Assembly: GCF_037042905.1 (NCBI RefSeq)
Contig: NC_087251.1
Coordinates: forward strand, 15,130,001-15,194,000
Reading direction: 5' to 3'
Source: Lytechinus pictus
Lineage: Eukaryota
DNA length: 64,000 nucleotides
This document shows positions 5,976 through 50,097 of this stretch, in pieces (position 1 is the first letter of the stretch; every line of letters starts with the position of its first letter). The position numbers and the translations under genes were made by a program. The notes beneath the pieces are model-generated. The model was not told the origin of the DNA. It did not search any database and worked only from the letters and a program-made list of their open reading frames with translations.

Positions 5976-7155
5976 CACCGCCTGTAGTCAGTGCAAATGG
6001 GCCTAGCTGCTGGAATACAAAAGTGAAACTAGAGATGCAATAGAATACCAAAAGAATCCCGACTGCTTGCTTCCATCTCAAAGTCTCAATACAAATTAAT
6101 TTCCATTTAAAGCTAAAAATCCCTTTGTCGTGATGTCCTGACTACTACCTTTGACAATACCTCATGGTTTTACGCCCTTCTTGCAGACATCCCAAGACAT
6201 GCAGATATTTGTATTCACCCCCATGATATCTGGAGATGTAATTATGTAGACCCTCTGATGGTTGTCGTGTTGTCCGACGACACATTAATCATGTGACGAG
6301 TGTGGATGGAATGGAGTTGCTCATTGTCTGTACACGATGGCACATCCAATGATTGACAGGCTAATTAGCCATTGAGAAAGCAAAACAAGCAACCATCTTT
6401 GGCCGACATATTTCTTGGGCCCTTTCATGAGTGGACTGTCTGCATTCAGCTAAAACTTACAGTTGTAACGTAATAGAATGAGTGTCGGCTGCATTCAATC
6501 ACATTTTTTTACCTGTAGAAACACAGTGTTTTCAAAGACATTGACCTATATTTTGAAACCCAAGTTTAACCTTGGTCTCATCTGAGCTAAAATGTTGGGA
6601 AGTTTGTAGTGTCAAGAATTTTTTATACTGTAATGCTTCTTGTGTTTACTTTGATCCTTTCCATGTTTTGATGGTGTTGAAAACTATCATACTTATCATT
6701 TCAAGACAATTTTGATGATTTCATTGCAGAATTTTGTGATCTTTTAATTTAAGAGATTGATGTCATATTTGACTATCCATAGTTAAACCACAAATTTAGA
6801 CCATGGTTAAACTGTAGTGCAGAATATCATGGAGCTATCAACACAGCTCCATGAGAATATCAGGCCCTTTATTTTAAACCATGGTTGCATATGAGCAGTT
6901 TTGTGGTAAAAATCTTTGTTTGAACATCCATGCACTTCGAATTGACCTTTATTTCCTGGGTTTAACTGTGCAGGAGCTGCCCAGTGGCCGGGTTTGACAT
7001 CGGGAATAATCATCTTGGATGAGAAATTGCTTTAAACACAATGAATATAATGCATCAGTTAAGACAAAGATACGTTTTGCTGCCATATTAAATAGCATTT
7101 CATACTTTGTTTACCATGTAATGAGTCCTGTGTCTGTTACCACAAATAACAACAA

Positions 7156-7995
7156 TTGTATCCCTCTTATGAATATTCATGAGTATTCTAGATAAACGAT
7201 TGGTCAATTCGTGATCATGTGACAAAGTATAATTTCAATAGGAAAACACATCGCTGCAATTAGCTCTGTATAGCTTTCTTATAGCTCCGTATATTTTTTT
7301 ATATACTTTCATGGGCAGAACTGCGCATGCTCATGCTCAATATTTTCTCTCAACTTTGAATTGCGCATGCTCCCTGACTGATCATCCGCAAAAAGTAAAT
7401 AAAGTAAAATACAAGCTCTCGCCCAAATTACCGTGCCGACAATCTGAAAAACAGTGTGGAATTGGGTCTAGATTACAATGCAGAAAATCTAATTCCGACG
7501 GCCATTCATACAGGATCCTTTGATATGGAATAAACATACCTAACAAGGTGAGTCAAGATCCGATACTAATTTTTAGAGCATACGTTTTAACTGCGCGTAT
7601 TTATTTTTGAGTGCCACTGCAGCAACGGCAAACGCAGCGCAAACCTCTCATTAAGTGCAGTCGGGTAGAAGCCACGCGCAGCCTACCCATGGACTGTCTA
7701 GCAATTAGCTCGACACAGGCCTAGAGTAGGACTAGGTCCGGTAACGTTAGATTTGGTCGAGATTGGTTAAAAATCAGCAAGGACTAGGTCCACAAAGTTA
7801 AAGAGGGATATAAACAAATATATCAGGCGTTTCTTTCGAAAGCATAGTGGAATTATTAATCCTCGGTTGGACTGGCAATGTAACTATTTTTCCCTCGGGG
7901 CTTCGCCCCTCGGGAAAAATAGTAATTGCCAGTCCAACCTCGGATAAATAATTCCCACTATACTTTCTCAAAGCCTGATATATTTGTATAATATC
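7156..7995 (-). mobile_element. Non-autonomous element with long terminal hairpin and asymmetric inverted repeat (Crypton-like or Helentron-like; unassigned)
   Basis: IR tatccctctt (7159-7168) / aagagggata (7801-7810). ~190-bp hairpin 7807-7995 centred on gcttcgc (7900-7906). CpG-rich body. Confidence 0.65.
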
Positions 7996-10900
7996 TTTAA
8001 TATTGAATTGATCTTATTTTTACTTTTTACGAGTTGCTATGTAATCTTCAAGCATATGCTGAATTACCAATGAAGCAGATCCATTTTACCCTGTTCCTTT
8101 CCTAAGGGAAAACTCAACTCTCCTTCCTCACCACAATCAAATGAAAATATTCCGACCATTAAATCTGTCATTGGTTGCCATGGTTTTCTATGTTGCTTCT
8201 GATTCTTTGCTTCAGGAAAGTGGGAAACATACAAATGATGCAGTATTATAGTTTGCCTTGGATTTTTGCATATATATGTTTGTGAATAATGTTCAGCATC
8301 TGTAAAGCCAGTGCTCATTAGGCAACGTGACAATGGTTTTCCAGATTTTACTTGCCTTTGATTCAATGAGGAAGATGACTTCCAGAGTAGGATTTCTATG
8401 GCGAGTTCATGCATTGGTTTTCTACATTGCAATCTCCTAAAAGAATCTAAAGCAATATCATACTGATATTTTTATTTATAAAGTCAGGTCACTTTTTTAA
8501 GATGGATGGATAAGTAGGTTGATGGAAAATGAGAGGGTTGCCGTGGCTTGTGCATCTTCCAGATACAGGAGCAGCACCACAGAATGGTGGGGGCAGGGAA
8601 ACAATTTTGTGTTTACAAGTATATAGTAAACAAAGAAGAAAGGGAGACATATAGGAGGAAGATAGAAGAAAAGAAGAGTATCCAAAAGGAAGGTCTGTGT
8701 CATATAAATACGACATCACCTTTATGTCATCTTGCCTTCCTGTCAAAATACCCTGCCTCTGTCCCTATCCAGATGATCAAGATGATCATGTAACTTCCAT
8801 ATTGCTGATAAATAATATCAAAAGCCTGTCTTGTTTTAAAGTCATGTCCTGTCAAAATGTTCCTGTGAACATTAATCATTTTATGCTAAGAAGAGTGAAG
8901 CATAAAGTTAAAATATATCACTGAAAGGCTTTGAGGGAAAACTAGAAGATGTATAACATAATTTGGCATTTGCCCACCCTCCCCATGGAGAAAGACATAG
9001 TACACTTATGTTATAAAAAAATATTATTTTGATATTTTTTGTCTTGCATTTAAATGTTTCCCATGCATACAAAATCAAATAAAGTTTGGATGAGATGAGA
9101 AGTAGGTCGTTAAAGAGGGGGTATAGGGAAACCAGACAATGGATCATACTGAATTGTGCCCAACCTCTTTGATATGGATAAATCACATTGTACTCTCTCA
9201 AGAGATAATGATTAACTATTGAATAATAATATCATATGTTATATTTTGTTCTTATCTTGCTCTCAAACGTTTCCCTAAATAGGAAATCAATTACTTTGTA
9301 ATAGTTGAACAGGTGAAAGGCGGCTTTTGAAGAGGGTTTCACAGAAAACCAACCAATCCATCATAAAGTCTTGTGTCTACAATTTCTACAAACACTCTAG
9401 GAGGTTAAAACCATCCTTTATGTTATAGCTTTTCTTCTATTTTTTAATATTTTACTAAAATGAAAAAGAGTGTTGTTGAATAGCCCTTCAGGGGAAGCAG
9501 CCTATCGATCCCACCTACATACTTTACGGGTTATCTATAAACATGTACTAGTATCTCATACGCTGGAGCGTAGATTTGAGAGCCATCTTTTATTCCTCTT
9601 TTATGCTTTTTTAAATATTCCTCCCCACTCAAGAGCAATTCAAGTGTAAAAAGATTGAATGGATGACAGAAAAGTCCTGTAGGGAAAGCCAGACTGCATC
9701 AATTATTTCCCTCACCTTCCCCTTCCAAGATGACATACTTATTTCATACTTGCCTGGAATCAATTTGAAAACTGGAACATGACATAAAGTAAAGCCATTT
9801 TATTGCTTGTATTTCATACCTATGGTATGCCTTTCAAACATCCTTTTGTATAAAATCTTCCATGCTCATGCTCATATCAGCCCATATAAACCTGTTTAGG
9901 CATTCTGATGAATTTAATGCATTGCTTAATCATTGGTGTCAAAACTACACCAGCCAGTGGTGTGGGAGGACTGCACCAAGCATTTTTAGAACTGCCAACC
10001 ACTACGTTTTTGCAACCAAAATATTTTTTTTTAAATACAAAATCATAATTTATTGAGAAACATCATCTCTATATCTCTCTATTTCATAACACTTACACAA
10101 ATATTGTAATTGGATGAATGAAATTTCAGGTAACTTGCTTTTTTCAATTATTTTTTTTAAAACCAGGGTGAGATATAACCATGTTTCAATTTTTTTTCAT
10201 CTGCAAGAGCAGTGCACATCTTATCAGAGAACAGGCTAGTGATTGTTACGTTGAGACAATTTTTTTTTAAATACTCTCTTTTTTGTCAAAAAGTACTTAT
10301 TTTCCCTTCTAAGAATACTTTTTTGTGGAAGAAGGTTGGCAGGTCTGCATTACTCTAGAATCAATTGATTCTTGCTATTATTACTACGGCATAGAATTAG
10401 CTTAACATGCAGCTTGAGCGCTGCGATGAGTGCGCTTTCCACCATTTGGACTCCTTTTTTTTCCTTCAATTTTTCATTCCCAGAGATGGCAGATCTGCAT
10501 TTTACACCAGTATTCAAATTATAGTGTCAATTCAACACCTACATGTATGTTATTCTGTTTTTATTAACATTATGATGTTATATTAAAACCAAACTCCATG
10601 GTGTATTTAAAATCTGAGGGTGTTGGACTCTTTGAACACCAACTTGTGCTGTTTTTTTAACAACATAGTCTTTTCAATGTGGGCATCCTTGGAACTGGAA
10701 TAGCAACAAAATCTTATCAATTAATTGAATTTTTGTACACAGTTTCCAATAGCAAAAATACTAATTTGAACAGTTATAGTGTAACAGGGCATAGATGTCA
10801 TAAAGCCCAGTTAAAATGATTTACTCACATTTGAATGATATCAGTGTTTCCAATTTTTTCTTTAAAACTTTGATGCTTTTAGTTACAAAGTTTAGTGCTA

Positions 10901-31233: not shown

Positions 31234-32324
31234 TATAGTGAATTCACAGAATTTTACTGAAGACACCATGAAAAAAATGATGAAAATCCATATTTTATTG
31301 TTCGAAATAGACAAGAAATGATGTTAAGGGAAAAGAAAAAAAAAATACAGCAAAAACATTCATGAAGAACCAAAGTCCAATAAAAAAAACCTTGCATCTG
31401 CAGTAAATCTAAATCAAAATGTTATGTTCTGCATTGCATACATATACATGTAGGTAAGCTATCAGTCACCAGTGTATAGTGATGCTGTCTAATTGGGGGA
31501 AAGAATTATCCAGAATACGTAGCAAACTTAGTGTAGAACTTATTTTTTTTAATAAGTTCTGCACTAAAAATAATAGGATAACATATTTTCATGTTCAATT
31601 TTCGACCAGCAATTGCTACTGAGAATCTTTTATTATGGATTTCATTGGATATATTGAGGTAAATCTCAGTGATGATACTGAAGGAAAACCCTGTCATTGT
31701 TAATTATTTCCTTCAAATGAATTTGCAAAGGAGGAGCCTGTTTAATCATGACAAAATTAGGTTAATTCTATGTTACGTATTCTTTACCTTCACATTTTGC
31801 AAAAAGTATTGATGAAGGACTATTACACATATAGCATAAGGGAAACTGTAAATTGAAATACATTTAATTTGAATCAAGAATTCTTGATCCTTCAGTATCC
31901 CAATCCTTAACTATCTTCATCTACCATGCATGCATTTTCTTTTTCCCCCCTCACTGTAATATAAGAAGATCCTTTGCAACACCTCTTGCTTTTATCTGTC
32001 TTTTCCTTTTTTCCTGATCTGTAAATCACTCGACCTTTGCTTCTCACCTTCCAAGTCTATTCATGCCTCATGCTTGTTCTCTAATATTCTTTCAATAAGA
32101 TCTCAACAAATAATTTCCTCCCGTATTTTCCTTTTTAGTCTTTAGAGCATTATCATGATACTCATTATTTCTTACCTTAATTTCTCTCTTTTCCAGTATT
32201 CTCAATAATCTCAAAATTCATTTTTAGGCATATCCCATTATGATCTCTATTTTTCTTTTTCCTAACTTCACATCTTCCACATTAATGGCCAATCTTTCTA
32301 TAGATCAGATCTCCACCCTGTCCT

Positions 32325-35300
32325 CCATTTACCTCTATATCAATCTAGCCATCCCTTCATTCCTCCATTCCCTATCCTTCATTTACCTTGATATCAATCT
32401 AGCCATCCCAGCATTCCTCCATTCCCTATCCTTCATTTACCTTGATATCAATCTAGCCATCCCATCATTCCTCCATTCCCTATCCTTCATTTACCTTTAT
32501 ATCAATCTAGCCATCCCATCATTCCTCCATTCCCTATCCTTCATTTACCTTTATATCACTCTAGCCATCCCATCATTCCTCCATTCCCTATCCTTCATTT
32601 ACCTTGATATCAATCTAGCCATCCCATCATTCCTCCATTCCCTATCCTTCATTTACCTTTATATCAATCTAGCCATCCCATCATTCCTCCATTCCCTATC
32701 CTTCATTTACATTTATATCAATCTAGCCATCCCATCATTCCTCCATTCCCTATCCTTCATTTACCTTTATATCAATCTAGCCATCCCATCATTCCTCCAT
32801 TCCCTATCCTTCATTTACCTTGATATCAATCTAGCCATCCCATCATTCCTCCATTCCCTATCCTTCATTTACCTTGATATCAATCTAGCCATCCCATCAT
32901 TCCTCCATTCCCTATCCTTCATTTACCTTTATATCAATCTAGCCATCCCATCATTCCTCCATTCCCTATCCTTCATTTACCTTTATATCAATCTAGCCAT
33001 CCCATCATTCCTCCATTCCCTATCCTTCATTTACCTTGATATCACTCTAGCCATCCCATCATTCCTCCATTCCCTATCCTTCATTTACCTTGATATCAAT
33101 CTAGCCATCCCATCATTCCTCCATTCCCTATCCTTCATTTACCTTTATATCAATCTAGCCATCCCATCATTCCTCCATTCCCTATCCTTCATTTACCTTT
33201 ATATCAATCTAGCCATCCCATCATTCCTCCATTCCCTATCCTTTATTTACCTTTATATCACTCTAGCCATCCCATCATTGCTCCATTCCTATCCTTCATT
33301 TACATTTATATCAATCTAGCCATCCCATCATTCCTCCATTCCCTATCCTTCATTTACCTTTATATCAATCTAGCCATCCCATCATTCCTCCATTCCCTAT
33401 CCTTCATTTATATTTATATAAATCTAGCCATCCCATCATTCCTCAATTCCCTATCCTTCATTTACATTTATCTCAATCTAGCCATCCCATCCTTCCTCAA
33501 TTCCCTATCCTTCATTTACCTTGATATCACTCTAGCCATCCCATCATTCCTCCATTCCCTATCCTTTATTTACCTTTATATCAATCTAGCCATCCCATCC
33601 TTCCTCAATTCCCTATCCTTCATTTACCTTGATATCACTCTAGCCATCCCATCATTCCTCCATTCCCTATCCTTCATTTACCTTTATATCACTCTAGCCA
33701 TCCCAGCATTCCTCCATTCCTATCCTTCATTTACATTGATATCAATCTAGCCATCCCATCATTCCTCCATTCCCTATCCTTCATTTACCTTTATATCAAT
33801 CTAGCCATCCCATCATTCCTCCATTCCCTATCCTTCATTTACCTTTATATCAATCTAGCCATCCCATCATTCCTCCATTCCCTATCCTTCATTTACCTTG
33901 ATATCAATCTAGCCATCCCTTCATTCCTCCATTCCCTATCCTTTATTTACCTTTATATCACTCTAGCCATCCCATCATTCCTCCATTCCCTATCCTTCAT
34001 TTACATTTATATCAATCTAGCCATCCCATCATTCCTCCATTCCCTATCCTTCATTTACCTTTATATCAATCTAGCCATCCCATCATTCCTCCATTCCCTA
34101 TCCTTCATTTACATTTATATCACTCTAGCCATCCCATCATTCCTCCATTCCCTATCCTTTATTTACCTTTATATCACTCTAGCCATCCCATCATTGCTCC
34201 ATTCCTATCCTTCATTTACATTGATATCAATCTAGCCATCCCATCATTCCTCCATTCCCTATCCTTCATTTACCTTGATATCACTCTAGCCATCCCAGCA
34301 TTCCTCCATTCCCTATCCTTCATTTACCTTTATATCAATCTAGCCATCCCATCATTCCTCCATTCCCTATCCTTTATTTACCTTTATATCACTCTAGCCA
34401 TCCCATCATTGCTCCATTCCTATCCTTCATTTACATTTATATCAATCTAGCCATCCCATCATTCCTCCATTCCCTATCCTTCATTTACCTTTATATCAAT
34501 CTAGCCATCCCATCATTCCTCCATTCCCTATCCTTTATTTACCTTTATATCACTCTAGCCATCCCAGCATTGCTCCATTCCTATCCTTCATTTACATTGA
34601 TATAAATCTAGCCATCCCATCATTCCTCCATTCCCTATCCTTTATTTACCTTTATATCACTCTAGCCATCCCATCATTGCTCCATTCCTATCCTTCATTT
34701 ACATTGATATCAATCTAGCCATCCCATCATTCCTCCATTCCCTATCCTTCATTTACCTTGATATCACTCTAGCCATCCCAGCATTCCTCCATTCCCTATC
34801 CTTCATTTACCTTTATATCAATCTAGCCATCCCATCATTCCTCCATTCCCTATCCTTTATTTACCTTTATATCACTCTAGCCATCCCATCATTGCTCCAT
34901 TCCTATCCTTCATTTACATTTATATCAATCTAGCCATCCCATCATTCCTCCATTCCCTATCCTTCATTTACCTTTATATCAATCTAGCCATCCCATCATT
35001 CCTCCATTCCCTATCCTTCATTTATATTTATATAAATCTAGCCATCCCATCATTCCTCCATTCCATATCCTTCATTTACATTTATCTCAATCTAGCCATC
35101 CCATCATTCCTCAATTCGCTATCCTTCATTTACATTTATCTCAATCTAGCCATCCCATCCTTCCTCAATTCCCTATCCTTCATTTACCTTGATATCACTC
35201 TAGCCATCCCATCATTCCTCCATTCCCTATCCTTCATTTACCTTTATATCAATCTAGCCATCCCATCATTCCTCCATTCCCTATCCTTCATTTACCTTTA

Positions 35301-35765
35301 TATCAATCTAGCCATCCCATCATTCATCCATTCCCTATCCTTCATTTACCTTTATATAAATCTAGCCATCCCATCATTCCTCCATTCCCTATCCTTCATT
35401 TACCTTTATATCAATCTAGCCATCCCATCATTCCTCCATTCCCTATCCTTCATTTACCTTTATATCAATCTAGCCATCCCATCATTCCTCCATTCCCTAT
35501 CCTTCATTTACATTTATATCAATCTAGCCATCCCATCATTCCTCCATTCCCTATCCTTCATTTACATTTATCTCAATCTAGCCATCCCATCATTCCTCCA
35601 TTCCCTATCCTTCATTTACCTTTATATCAATCTAGCCATCCCATCATTCCTCAATTCCCTATCCTTCATTTACCTTTATATCAATCTAGCCATCCCATCA
35701 TTCCTCCATTCCCTATCCTTCATTTACCTTTATATCAATCTAGCCATCCCATCATTCCTCCATTC
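32325..35765. repeat. 54-bp pyrimidine-rich minisatellite, ~63-64 copies
   Basis: Unit atcaatctagccatcccatcattcctccattccctatccttcatttacctttat. 18-codon periodicity in the ORF track. Confidence 0.98.
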
Positions 35766-38378
35766 CTCAATCTACCACTTCCTCTCATCCATCTCCCATT
35801 CCGACCCCCATTCCCACTCGCCCCTCGCTACCACTATCCTGGATCAAGGAGGATATGGTTGAAAAGCGGCAAGACCATGTACAAATTAATTTTCCAGACA
35901 TTAAATTGCCATTAGAGGGACATCCATCAGGCCGTGTTACAAGACTTTGGTTTTTGCGCCCAACCCATTCGGGTAAACACCATTCTCCGGGGCCTCGCTC
36001 TGCGGCATAGACGACTGACCTTTCGTTGGAGTCGTTTATTTATTCGTCTGAACTCGTCCTTAATGTCTAGGGGAAGATCATCAGTTAAATATCGATCCAT
36101 TTCTTCAAGAGGACGTCTCGGTGAGAGGGGCATGAAGACTGTTTGATAAATGAAATGATTTCATTTAGTATCTTGATACCCTCTATTTCTATTTCCTGAG
36201 TAGAATAGCAGAATAATTGGAGGCCATTACCCTATAGCACTGTTTTAGCAGAGCTAAAGTGGATGGTTGATTTTGTAAGGATCTCTTGAAGAATATATGC
36301 TTATGAAATAGAATTCATTGTCCATCTCCAATTTTCTTTTACTTTATATATTGTACAAAATTATGCATTTATTATTACAGACAGTTCTATTGGCAGTATC
36401 ATTTTCTTTTCTTTTTCATTGTTAGTGTATTTTCTTATTTCATATTTTCTATTCAGCAAACATAGTGTACACATTTTTTACAAATATTTTGATTAACATT
36501 GTTATTATGTGCATTTAAAAGACATGATGTTCATGAAATACCCAGAGTACTTTAATCATTTTTTTTTACATTTTGAAAAAAAAATGTGTATGCTTCTTTT
36601 AATACAAAAAATATTTTGGTCAGCAATGTCATTTTGTCAAGAGACCTATTGATGAAATTTCCCTCATTTGACAGCTTCCCTCTCCAGAGATTGCACATTA
36701 CTGTTATTGTTGTAATAGTACTTATAATATTCAACATGATGAATATCATCATGAAGTTTTTCTGCTTTTATTTATTACCGAAAAGGAATTTTTTTTTATT
36801 TCTAGAGTTTTCATATAACATTGATCCTGAATTCTATTGACACGAACCTGTTTGTTATTCGATAGAGGTTTAATAGTTTCAGTCATAATCTTTCAAGATG
36901 AAGCAAGATGATGAAGTCTAGAACATCTCAATCCCAGCAAAGAAGATGATATTGAGATTTGAGTGTTGAATGGTCTGCATTCTCTGATGTGTGTAACAAT
37001 CCCCTTCAGATTTGGATCAAGATGTGGAAATATATGCCTTTTGTGTGAGATTTCAAACAGTTCGGTGAGGTTTGCGGCATGCTTGGTGTCTATTCTGAGT
37101 AAAATGCCAGGCGTATTGATTACACATGAAATGATGTGTGATTCAACACAGCCAGCCAAGCTTGTATGGAGGGTGGCTTTCATTTCACTCTTGTGCCTTT
37201 TTTTCTGTTATGAAAGAGGAGCAGAGTGAGGGAGAGGGGGATGATGAAAGGGGGAGGCGGAGGAGTAAGAGGGGGAGGAAGGGAGGGGGAAGGGTAGTGT
37301 AGATGTTGATGTTGATAGAGACAGCAAATATAAAGTATTGTGATCATGCTCAATTAAGGAAGAGAGAAATTCTAAACAGGCAATATGACAAATGAGAGAT
37401 TAGAGAAAGTGAAAGGGGAAAGAGTGTTCGAGAAAAAGGAAAGGAGGGATAGAGAGAGAAGGAAAGTGAGAGAGTGATAGAGAAAGGGTTGGTGGGGATA
37501 GGGGAAAGAGAGAGGAAGATATGATATGTACGGTGTTTGGGGAAGAGACTCAAATGTAGAAATCGTATTCTACGGTATTACACTTTGGGAATTAATGAGA
37601 AAGATGAACATTCATTGCCTTCTAGAAGGAGTTCCAAAGATATCAACAAGAATGCTACTTGATGCCATGAAAGCAGAGACAGGTGTTTAGTCTTGCATTG
37701 ATGACGTGATGACGGTCGTGAAAGTTATTAAAAGAAACAAATATTAGGAGCAATGAAAAACCAGTTTTGTGAAGACGTAATGAAACGAGATTCAGCATTT
37801 ATTACATTCTAGAATGAATTATATAAATGTAGCCTACAAATTTGATGTTTAGATGAAGTACAGGGTCATGAAATGGTTGCCATATCATTACTATTACTAC
37901 ACACTATAATTAATGTTATCACCTTTAGGTGGGTAATTGACGTAATTCCATTCAAAATATGAATTCATTTTGCAATAGAACAGATAGTGGCATGTAGAAT
38001 GTACCTCTCTTGTAGTAATGAAATTATCAGATTTTTTCCCCCCAGTTTATTGTTGTCTTTAGATCCGACTATGGGTTTAGTTGAACTGAAGTTTTTCCAA
38101 AAGGGTTGCTTATTATATGCCTGAAAGTGAGAAAAAAGGAACCACCCACATTTTCATGTAACAGTACGCAAACCTGATATGCAACTGAAGCATAGTCAGG
38201 GGCCAGTCAGGGTGGGAGCATACAGAACATAGGATGATTTCATCAATAGGAATTTAAGAATTTCCTGAATTGTAAACATGGATCCAAAAGGAGAGGCTAA
38301 GTTTAATAATTTGCGAAAGGGCTGAGGGAGGCTCTTACCCCTGCCTTTGTCGATATTAATATTGTCCCAGGGAAAGTG

Positions 38379-48937: not shown

Positions 48938-50097
48938 CCCAAGGGGGGGGGGGGCACTTCCATTGACGGGTGGATACCTTGCGTGACCATAGGGTTTTGA
49001 AAAGCACCTTAAACAAGTATTTGCAATGTTCTGAAAATGCAACCCTTAAACAAGTCCACCCCAACTAAAAGTTGATTTGAATAAAAAGAGAAAAATCTAA
49101 TAAACATAACGCTGAAAATTTCTTCAAAATCGGATGTAAAACAAGAAAGTTATGACATTTTAAAGTTTCCCTTTATTTCATAAAACAGTTATATGCACAT
49201 CCTGATCGCTATGCAAATGAGGAGACTGATGATGTCATCCTCTTACTATTTCTTTTGTATTTTATTATATGAAATGTGAAATATTCTAATTTTCTCCTCA
49301 TTGTCAAGTGAGGCAACAATTAATTTCTCTTGAACATGTGGAATTAGTATTGTTTAATACTATATGGTTCAGTCAAGTTGATCATTATTGTCAAATCTGT
49401 AAAAAATGAAATATTGTATAATTCAAACAATAAAAAACAAAAAAATAGTGAGTGAGTGACATAATCGACTCTCTCATTTGCATGTCACTGAGTTGTGCAT
49501 ATCACTGGTTTTTTTTTTAAATAAGCAAAACTTTAAAATGTCATAACTTTCTTATTTTACATCTGATTTTGATGAAATTCTCAGCGTAATGCTAGTTTGA
49601 TTTTTCTCTATTTATTCAAATCAACATTTGTCTGGGGTGGACTTGACCTTTAACAAGTATTGGCATGTGAAACCCTACCCTTAACAAGTATTGGAAACAA
49701 AATGGTACCCTTGACAAGCTATACCCTGAATTGACCCCCTAAACAAGTACAACGATATCTTATTGTTATGTCACTGACGTGATCACGGATGTCAACTTTA
49801 CCTCTACTTTCAGTGGGTTTAGTACCACCCCACACACCTTGCTCAAATTGGACCCTAAACACTTAATGTTGGGGCAAAAAGTACATCCTTTATAAAGTAT
49901 TTTAGTCTTTTTATATCCTCGCAAATTGGACCGTAAACACTTAGTTTTCCTAGCAAAATATATACCCTTTTTCCATTATCTTAGTGTTTTTGACACCCTT
50001 ATTAAGTTACATGTGTAACCTATCTTGAAAAAGAGATCTTTTTACGCGTTTTTGGTCACGCACGGTGATCACTTTTCAATGGAAGTGACCTCCCAGG
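48938..50097. mobile_element. CMC/EnSpm-like non-autonomous element (host of the Kolobok copy)
   Basis: Inverted ends ccca(g)n-cacttccattga...gcgtgacca / tggtcacgc...tcaatggaagtgacctcccagg. Many subterminal ccyt(t)aaacaagta-like repeats. Flanked by tgcggctg on both sides. Confidence 0.7.
49050..49649. mobile_element. Kolobok-like MITE, copy 2, nested in a CMC/EnSpm-like element
   Basis: Same sequence family as 15874-16448. Right end GGGGTGGACTTGACCT|TTAA; left end lacks ~3 nt after TTAA. Confidence 0.85.

Follow-up and report, generated by a model that had tools for sequence, protein, structure and literature searches.

What is an imperfect palindrome of about 190 bp doing at one end of a dispersed repeat in the genome of Lytechinus pictus, and do the mismatches that interrupt it tell one DNA strand from the other? 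The question arises from a window of 64,000 nt (the whole stretch of DNA that was analysed, positions 15,130,001 to 15,194,000 of contig NC_087251.1 in assembly GCF_037042905.1), in which the palindrome lies at 7807-7995; coordinates given below without a locus or contig name are positions in this window on the + strand. A first-pass annotation had assigned the palindrome to a mobile element recognised as folded single-stranded DNA (ssDNA). The evidence assembled here indicates that it is probably the right-terminal stem-loop of a non-autonomous Helitron-like group 2 element (HLE2) of the Helentron-associated kind (HINE), and we are quite confident that it is an end hairpin of Helentron type. 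The asymmetry of its mismatches is a trait of the family and is plausibly selected.

The palindrome forms the 3' terminal module of a non-coding repeat of about 840 bp (7156-7994, +), the whole element, whose family was named sub1 and is called the younger family below. Among 30 fetched loci, 20 aligned to it over the full length (from 7152-7159 to 7993-8005, at 84.6-93% identity) between unrelated flanks, and the remaining ten were internally shortened or interrupted. When 7790-8010 was used as a query against the genome to which the window belongs (812 Mb, 368 contigs), 1191 first-look candidate places were obtained, of which 40 were scored and showed 91-98% identity; since each of these 40 copies matches its own reverse strand at 74-82% only, the imperfection of the palindrome is common to the copies. 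The 25-mer at the 5' end occurs 109 times in the genome at up to one mismatch, against 0 occurrences of a control pattern. The copy number of the element is in the hundreds, and the candidate places, full-length copies and 5'-end occurrences bear out the earlier suggestion of a mobile-element family and not a single-copy sequence. No open reading frame (ORF) of at least 80 aa was found inside the element when the surrounding 6 kb were scanned, Rfam gave 0 matches on 7000-8100 at E up to 1, and no central tandem array or microsatellite was found inside the window copy, which has two weak 10-nt rows only. In sequencing data that covered the repeat (four runs from three studies), the summed word depth of both termini was 10-100 times that of the body, depth not being copy number; no contig skipping the element, that is, no polymorphic empty site, was found in these runs, in which the unique flanks had zero cover.

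The two ends of the element are built differently. At the 5' end the boundary is marked by TT (7156-7157): among 28 5' flanks found by a search pattern without TT, T stands at -2 in 27 and at -1 in 26. A subterminal inverted repeat (subTIR) with the family form ATATCCCTCTT follows at 7158-7168, the window copy having G at 7158, and TT plus ATATCCCTCTT opens 20/20 full copies, with single changes in a few. This repeat is overlapped by a small palindrome at 7166-7183 (arms 7166-7177 and 7172-7183), comparable to the 'IR' of HINE/DINE-1. On the 3' side, a subterminal inverted copy of the repeat, AAGAGGGATATAA, lies at 7801-7813 and abuts the hairpin; over 13 nt it is 92% complementary to 7156-7168 in the window copy. 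The long stem-loop of about 80 bp (7814-7987) begins one base after this right repeat and is followed by a 7-nt tail, ATAATAT (7988-7994), with which the element ends: after TTTGTATA come any base, T (51/53), A (48/53) and T (39/53), and then variable sequence, and the contigs of the four sequencing runs depart from the window after 7994. When whole elements were folded as ssDNA, nt 1-13 paired with the right repeat in all six full copies, coaxially with the hairpin foot, and the tail was left single-stranded in all six; in the predicted fold the last base of the repeat helix (7156 with 7813) stacks on the first hairpin pair (7814 with 7987). No target-site duplication was found among the 20 full copies with unrelated flanks.

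A BLAST search with the flanks gave one usable paralogous empty site and two weak ones, none of which fixes the boundary to the base, and in these comparisons the assignment of the boundary Ts to host or element is ambiguous by 1-2 nt. The usable comparison concerns the L020/L021 insertion, for which uninterrupted paralogous sites exist at 49721-49896 of the window and in L071 (L071:238-426); because it is homologous to these uninterrupted paralogues, the L020/L021 flank is host DNA. Both sites and the flanks of L020/L021 constitute another dispersed repeat family. An apparent conserved sequence behind some 3' ends was rejected as artefactual, having been produced where matches fell on the wrong palindrome strand.

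Upstream of the element, a short motif recurs at a fixed distance in the host flank. In 48 5' flanks (28 from fetched loci and 20 further), with positions counted from ATATCCC, A was found at -12 in 25, T at -11 in 41, A at -10 in 43, T at -9 in 32 and A at -3 in 29, positions -8 to -4 being variable; the family motif A-T-A-T at -12 to -9 corresponds to ATAA at 7146-7149 (+) in the window copy. A motif at a fixed distance suggests either that the target is chosen by sequence or that flanking DNA forms part of what the origin requires. HUH transposons, such as IS91, often need a flanking motif at the origin end. FoHeli1 and FoHeli2, Helitron2-type elements of Fusarium oxysporum, are described with the flanking motif TNAT (PMC5148889). 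At three loci (L070, L077 at L077:239-300, and L114) the 5' end is directly preceded by the last 13-20 nt of the 3' end of another copy, head-to-tail junctions as expected from rolling-circle read-through, from joined ends or from insertion beside an existing end.

This anatomy was compared with that of known transposons. HLE2/HINE elements are described as having subTIRs of 12-15 bp, of which the left lies 2-4 nt inside the 5' end and the right precedes a 3' palindrome, and as inserting within TT, with strings of T at the boundaries and no duplication (PMC4067079); the published definition includes terminal repeats of 11-18 nt and T-T insertion (PMC4067079, PMC7492417, PMC11417382), and for HINE/DINE-1 the left flank is given as 5' subTIR, IR and microsatellite and the right flank as 3' subTIR and palindrome (PMC7492417). 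The present element shares the short terminal inverted repeats, the stem-loop after the right repeat and the lack of a target-site duplication. Its likeness to HINE/DINE-1 extends to the place of the repeat (11-13 nt, 2 nt from the 5' end, with an inverted subterminal 3' copy ahead of the stem-loop), the small palindrome overlapping the 5' repeat, T-rich boundaries, high copy number, several families with common ends and different bodies, and Helentron genes in the same genome. It differs from described HINEs in the distance of the 3' repeat from the end (about 180 nt here, 38-60 nt in PMC4067079), in the window copy being without a central tandem array or microsatellite, and in that no autonomous partner with the same termini was found among one representative of each of three Helentron lineages. 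What is new is a tenfold longer, regularly interrupted hairpin, with same-letter bubbles and a G..A loop frame that two families have kept; Helentron hairpins that are mismatched or long are not described in the literature found, the supplementary end-sequence tables of PMC4067079 and PMC7492417 being outside the search.

FoHeli1/2 resemble the present element in their asymmetric terminal inverted repeats, in hairpins with a GAA loop closed by C-G, whose inverted 3' copy would read TTC on the top strand, as here, and in their upstream motif TNAT, comparable to TAT at -11 to -9; joined-end (circle) products have been detected for them (PMC5148889). They differ in being fungal, in their short hairpins and, as far as described there, in that TNAT is adjacent to the insertion point, whereas TAT here lies 7-9 nt upstream of TT. 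Helraiser likewise has a hairpin a few nt upstream of its 3' end, but its 5' TC, 3' CTAG, A-T insertion, 19-bp palindrome and lack of terminal inverted repeats set it apart (PMC4778049). Other classes were rejected. A canonical Helitron (HLE1) has 5' TC, 3' CTRR, a hairpin about 11 nt from the end and A-T insertion, and the ends here are TTATATCC... and ...GTATAATAT. A cut-and-paste miniature inverted-repeat transposable element (MITE) or a foldback element is at odds with a right repeat about 180 nt internal and with the lack of a target-site duplication. Replitrons have direct terminal repeats and a Rep without helicase (10.1101/2022.12.15.520654), and the termini here are inverted. The first-pass annotation had drawn an analogy both with HUH origins and with tyrosine-recombinase substrates; the Helentron layout agrees with the former, and the analogy with integron attC finds no support here. 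With IS200/IS605 ends and integron attC sites the likeness is one of principle: what the enzyme recognises there is a hairpin formed by one strand, and the choice of strand is set by flaws in it such as extra-helical or mismatched bases. Those systems are bacterial and much smaller, and attC uses a tyrosine recombinase; membership in IS200/IS605 was excluded, and an attC site is unlikely.

The palindrome itself was confirmed by sequence, by inverted-repeat search and by ssDNA folding. It contains nested inverted repeats of 31 nt (90%), 21 nt (90%) and 19 nt (89%). Folding of 7800-8000 as ssDNA gave a minimum free energy (MFE) of -63.2 kcal/mol on the + strand (shuffle mean -16.3, z -14.7) and of -65.4 kcal/mol on the - strand (shuffle mean -16.7, z -15.2), and among 200 dinucleotide shuffles per strand (standard deviation 3.2) none folded as stably on either. 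In the MFE structure of 7807-7995, two of the three TC/TC bubbles claimed earlier, the middle (7863-7864 opposite 7940-7941) and the apical (7895-7896 opposite 7910-7911), are clean symmetric 2x2 loops, CTCG opposite CTCG, exactly as first placed. The third (7836-7837 opposite 7968-7969) depends on the register: the MFE structure has a 1x2 loop here, with C7837 alone unpaired on the left and opposite T7968-C7969, beside a 5-nt bulge, GTTTC, in the left arm (7829-7833), and the 2x2 drawing is an alternative pairing of the same letters. Both subfamilies have this bulge, in the MFE structure and in both majority sequences, and a 3x1 internal loop in which GTA (7880-7882) faces A7924. Further irregularities are an A-A mismatch (7858/7946), a C-A mismatch (7843/7962) and a one-base bulge, C7954, in the window copy alone, which is without a G after 7848. 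Read on the - strand, both clean loops become CGAG facing CGAG, and GCGAAGC lies within the apex, GGGGC-GAA-GCCCC, as had been noted in the first pass; on the + strand the apical loop is TTC (7902-7904).

The further claim that only one strand folds well was not borne out: the strands lie within 2-3 kcal/mol of each other out of about -65, and over the window copy and the majority sequences the + strand ranges from -62 to -67 and the - strand from -64 to -69 kcal/mol. Nearest-neighbour parameters assign +1.3 kcal/mol to GA/GA, +1.7 to TC/TC and 3.4 to either triloop, the model having no score for sheared G-A pairs; because all of these are scored almost alike, folding of this kind is unable to test strand asymmetry.

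A second, older family was found through a diverged copy beside one locus. It has 677 candidate places, its copies are 78-88% alike and about 840 bp long, and it shares with the younger family only the first 11 nt or so and an end module of about 195 nt (7804-7994 in the window, 82.6% identity). Its terminal repeat reads ATATCCCTTAC at the 5' end and GGAAGGGATAT before the hairpin, so that both copies of the repeat differ together between the families. For comparison, 63 end modules were aligned, 62 of them distinct, after two partial L026 copies and two L065 rows duplicating L013 had been dropped. The two majority sequences differ at about 25 positions and form the same hairpin, with folds of -66.6 (+) and -69.2 (-) kcal/mol in the younger and -62.1 (+) and -64.0 (-) kcal/mol in the older family. 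When the 62 distinct copies were placed on the younger-family structure, 91.4% of cells were paired, compared with 88.7 +/- 0.2% in 500 shuffles (0/500 reach the observed value) and 39-48% with slid partners, and 172 cells had changed on both sides, compared with 70.7 +/- 13.1 in shuffles (0/500) and 17-42 with slid partners; the number of pairs with a both-sided change, 13, is no excess over the controls (shuffles 10.2 +/- 1.9, reached by 56/500; slid partners 13-19). Six stem pairs switch both sides between the families (alignment columns 27/225, 29/223, 60/201, 72/194, 89/169 and 91/167), the switches being UA/CG 29:27, AU/GC 30:19, AU/GC 29:29, AU/UA 29:25, AU/UA 29:29 and UA/CG 30:25; they represent six events, each inherited by many copies. 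Many contigs of the four sequencing runs with loose ends at 7812 carry the same hairpin behind other sequence (...AAAAGTAGGATATA; for example L002:421-612), and at least a third family has the same end module with a variant right repeat.

The first pass had proposed to test whether the bubble positions are conserved in the family while stem pairs covary, and this is what the two families show: each of the three bubble sites carries TC on either arm in the majority sequence of both families, neither consensus is a perfect palindrome, and the six stem pairs have changed on both sides. Among 60 copies, counted after three segmental duplicates had been dropped, TC was found at the outer site in 53/58 (left) and 54/57 (right) matched copies, at the middle site in 54/58 (left) and 52/57 (right, with GA in one, L024) and at the apical site in 45/56 (left) and 42/53 (right, with TT in eight); most alternatives are TT and represent CpG decay. 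The older family differs from the younger one at the C-A and A-A mismatches, which it has resolved in another way. In the four runs no alternative letter reaches 10% at 7863, 7864, 7895, 7896, 7910, 7940 or 7941, and at 7911 a C>T change does. Two transversions would be required for point mutation to pair a bubble. In the genome as a whole, 266 exact apices carry TC on both sides, none has the paired form with GA on the right, and three places have the one with GA on the left. Multi-base conversions that pair the arms were found in L024 (L024:1511-1708, at the middle site and the neighbouring A-A mismatch) and in L080 (at the apex). Besides L080, the apex is paired at C3:45598314 and C6:9329985, where one arm has been rewritten over adjacent bases into the exact complement of the other, which looks like hairpin-templated repair or template switching and not like point mutation. 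The asymmetry was judged a family trait, and a plausibly selected one, because both families keep the bubbles and the apex is TC/TC at 266 places and paired at 3. We regard the case for selection on the bubbles as evenly balanced; in favour are that the letters are identical at all sites and have survived changes at other mismatches, and that the conversions have not spread.

At the apex the frame of the loop is kept. In the younger family the loop is TTC in 27/28 copies, which places GAA within GCGAAGC on the - strand; in the older family the majority of the loop column is TCGC, that is, GCGCGAGC on the - strand. The exact TCGC was found in 4 of the 21 matched older copies, ten further copies being unmatched; TCGT (5), TCAC (2) and TTGT (1) are explainable as CpG decay of TCGC, and the other loops are GCGC (2), TGGC (2), TTC (2) and three singletons. 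The apex of both majority sequences, read on the - strand, fits the mini-hairpin motifs GCGNAGC and GCGNNAGC (PMC13037366). The physical premises of the first-pass annotation are in print: for GCGAAGC and GCGAAAGC a melting temperature of 76.5 C is reported, against about 70 C for loop variants and 33 C for GCTTTTGC (PMC13037366), and two adjacent G-A pairs are reported to leave the stability of B-DNA unperturbed (PMC11014236). Mini-hairpin motifs have been reported at single-strand replication origins (PMC13037366). Unlike those d(GCGAAGC) or GCGNNAGC mini-hairpins, the motif here caps a stem of 80 bp, where it may affect nucleation and local shape, and would hardly affect overall stability. 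With a stem of this length both strands would fold regardless. Asymmetry can act only through local shape or nucleation.

Helentron genes are present in the same genome. Pfam Helitron_like_N gave 35 genome matches, 23 of them with open frames of 2190-3525 aa. One copy of each of three lineages was examined (L061+L031+L062, L063+L035+L064 and L054+L097, the third ORF from DUF6570 onward); along their ORFs the domains follow one another as OTU, Herpes_teg_N, DUF6570, Helitron_like_N, PIF1 and, at the C terminus, an Exo_endo_phos endonuclease. DUF6570 together with the endonuclease is given as a mark of HLE2/Helentron (PMC11417382). The many copies with uninterrupted frames look recently active. 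Clusters of Helentron ORFs lie on contigs C10 and C12. Satellite-like arrays flank the ORFs (L063:2280-2985; L061:1-1754; L062:2171-3853), with an 80-bp unit repeated about nine times upstream in lineage B, and a unit of about 839 bp upstream and one of about 626 bp downstream in lineage A.

Several points weigh against the reading of the palindrome as a Helentron end hairpin with selected bubbles. Longer copies with the same ends and an encoded HUH protein, for which the first pass had suggested looking, were not found among one representative of each of the three lineages. The element of either family gave no BLAST match below E = 0.01 to the three Helentron stretches (20.1, 18.6 and 9.6 kb, reaching 3.8-7.9 kb downstream of the ORFs, in a partner search that was not exhaustive), and a motif scan found no terminal-repeat motif in the right places in these stretches. 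A hairpin scan downstream of the three ORFs gave nothing interpretable, element boundaries being undefined there. Around the first 100 listed exact-apex places (contigs C1-C7), the 300 kb to either side contain no Rep match. The partner may be elsewhere, may have been lost or may have ends of different sequence. The element may have either orientation relative to a Rep gene, and HLE2 families with the stem-loop at the 5' end are described (PMC11417382). The evidence for T-T insertion consists of the 5' TT in 26-27/28 flanks and a T as 3' neighbour in 39/53, with empty sites ambiguous by 1-2 nt. The stem, of about 80 bp (about 185 nt in all), is far from the 5-10-bp palindromes described for HINEs (PMC4067079), and no Helentron experiment on cutting, on the moving strand or on the role of the 3' stem-loop was found in the literature searches. 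As to the bubbles, within-family sharing is by descent, and the chance that 12 bubble letters stay unchanged between modules 82.6% alike is about 1 in 10. The stems tolerate mismatches: a variant, 7933 T>A, makes up about half of the summed depth in the four runs without a listed partner change at 7872, and the older family has an uncompensated C-A at columns 90/168.

The anatomy, the copy number, the lack of duplication, the covariation, the retention of the bubbles and the Helentron genes are observations; the course of transposition, drawn by analogy with the Helraiser Helitron, and the role given to the bubbles in it are our inference. In Helraiser the transposase, a HUH nuclease, cuts ssDNA at both ends, the left end is essential and the product is a circle; its 3' hairpin acts as a terminator whose function is abolished by a change of the loop and not by a swap of the stem (PMC4778049). 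By analogy, a Rep-helicase(-endonuclease) supplied by an autonomous Helentron would nick one strand at the 5' TT, and the nicked strand would be peeled off 5' to 3'. The last 190 nt or so, once single-stranded, would snap into the long hairpin, which would halt the helicase and position the 3' cut in the 7-nt tail behind the hairpin foot. The 13-nt 5' repeat would pair with its inverted copy, so that the 5' end would stack on the hairpin foot beside the 3' tail; with 5' end and 3' tail at one junction, the predicted geometry suits cutting of the tail and joining of the ends into a circle. The conserved irregularities (two or three TC/TC bubbles, the 3x1 loop, the 5-nt bulge and the T..C or G..A loop frame) would make the hairpins of the two strands non-equivalent, and we take this non-equivalence to be the cue by which the protein distinguishes them. 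By analogy with Helitrons, the strand that moves would in the canonical orientation be the pyrimidine (+) one, with TC/TC and the TTC loop. This orientation was favoured because of the T..T flanks and because the hairpin end is the more abundant and better conserved one; Helitron-like right ends are reported to be less diverse than left ends (PMC11417382).

The bubbles admit other explanations, one of which is neutral inheritance: mismatches of a founder copy would be merely tolerated, or would serve only to spare a long palindrome from deletion by the host, and would be shared by descent. We consider this unlikely. Copies of one family are 91-98% alike, the step from TC to GA takes two transversions, so that rare paired forms are expected anyway, and the other mismatches and the abundant uncompensated variant show that the stem tolerates defects. 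Independent decay would hardly leave the same letters on both arms at three bubbles, and the three bubbles stayed when two other mismatches were resolved differently between the families; multi-base conversions that pair the arms do occur (the middle site in L024, the apex in L080 and two further places), and each form is seen a few times at most. The first-pass claim that the mismatches are selected and not decay is plausible from their retention in both families, for which the chance is about 0.1. It is quite unlikely, in our estimate, that the bubbles are a by-product of a protein-binding motif, CCTCGG, laid over the inverted repeat four times in the same orientation (7862, 7893, 7908 and 7938) and read as double-stranded or single-stranded DNA. 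The two clean bubbles do consist of the same hexamer, CC-TC-GG, on both arms, symmetric about the apex; it is retained in two families and in a third variant without the apex (L026), and masters keep the CpG of each motif, which in dead copies has given way to TT or CA. Against it, the letters at the outer site are TTTCGA on the left and TTTCTCA on the right instead of CCTCGG, the examined Helentron copies are nearly without CCTCGG or CCGAGG, and to our knowledge no protein is known for CCTCGG.

A different account places the function on the purine (-) strand, where three sheared G-A steps in Py-GA-Pu context would give a near-continuous helix with a GCGAAGC-type cap, the sole fold to be recognised, and where the pyrimidine strand would be the bubbled, weaker hairpin. 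This is unlikely as it stands: both strands fold strongly, so that 'only one strand folds' is not literal, the third bubble lacks a clean GA/GA, no more than 4/21 matched older copies have the exact TCGC loop, and loop variants at the level of masters number only two; moreover, the canonical orientation displaces the + strand, which fits the T..T flanks and the more abundant, better-conserved end module. In its favour are CGAG opposite CGAG at two sites and GCGAAGC at the apex of the - strand, and the older apex GCGCGAGC, which fits GCGNNAGC and keeps the G..A loop frame with its interior changed. Published data agree: d(GCGAAGC) melts at 76.5 C against 33 C for GCTTTTGC (PMC13037366), two adjacent G-A pairs leave B-DNA stability unchanged (PMC11014236), GCC-GAA-GGC hairpins are described in Fusarium at Helitron2-type ends, on the top strand at the 5' end and with an inverted copy near the 3' end (PMC5148889), and the - strand would be the top strand if the element were of the 'reverse' HLE2 type (PMC11417382). 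Finally, the element might not move by rolling circle at all; it could be a cut-and-paste MITE or a foldback element, or a tyrosine recombinase might move it as a Crypton-type element and recombine it at the palindrome. Foldback elements are known to have long hairpins, a Crypton or attC analogy had been proposed earlier, and no autonomous partner that would show the enzyme was found among the examined Helentrons. The 20 full copies show no target-site duplication, and the ends are asymmetric, the inverted repeat being terminal at the 5' end and lying about 180 nt inside the element at the 3' end, an arrangement that in the sources consulted is described only for Helitron2/Helentron (PMC4067079, PMC11417382); a Crypton or attC substrate is unlikely given the eukaryotic repeat context and the HLE2 layout, no search for a tyrosine recombinase having been made. 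We hold a non-rolling-circle origin to be highly improbable.

Two further repeats were observed in the window. Just upstream of the element, 6761-6821 has very high summed word depth in all four runs, which indicates another high-copy repeat, and at 32316-35766 a 54-bp unit is repeated 64 times with 94% match, strongly C/T-rich on the + strand with a GC skew of about -0.8.

Assumptions about the mechanism of Helentrons are borrowed from one reconstructed bat Helitron. The element described here offers a natural data set, with hundreds of copies in at least two families that share only their ends, in which stems covary and a few same-letter mismatches stay fixed, and it offers a testable predicted fold in which the 5' end, the hairpin foot and the 3' tail lie side by side. 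With neutral bubbles, the family would be an ordinary HINE family in all but the unusual length of its hairpin. Should the end hairpin be read on the purine strand, with tandem sheared G-A steps at fixed intervals and a GCGNAGC or GCGNNAGC cap, which we think improbable, a eukaryotic rolling-circle transposon would mark the identity of its strands by non-Watson-Crick pairs; the family would be a natural high-copy case of strand choice encoded by G-A pairs, and a substrate for the first biochemistry of Helentron transposition. Strand-dependent mismatches of this kind may show how Helentron-like elements distinguish their strands.

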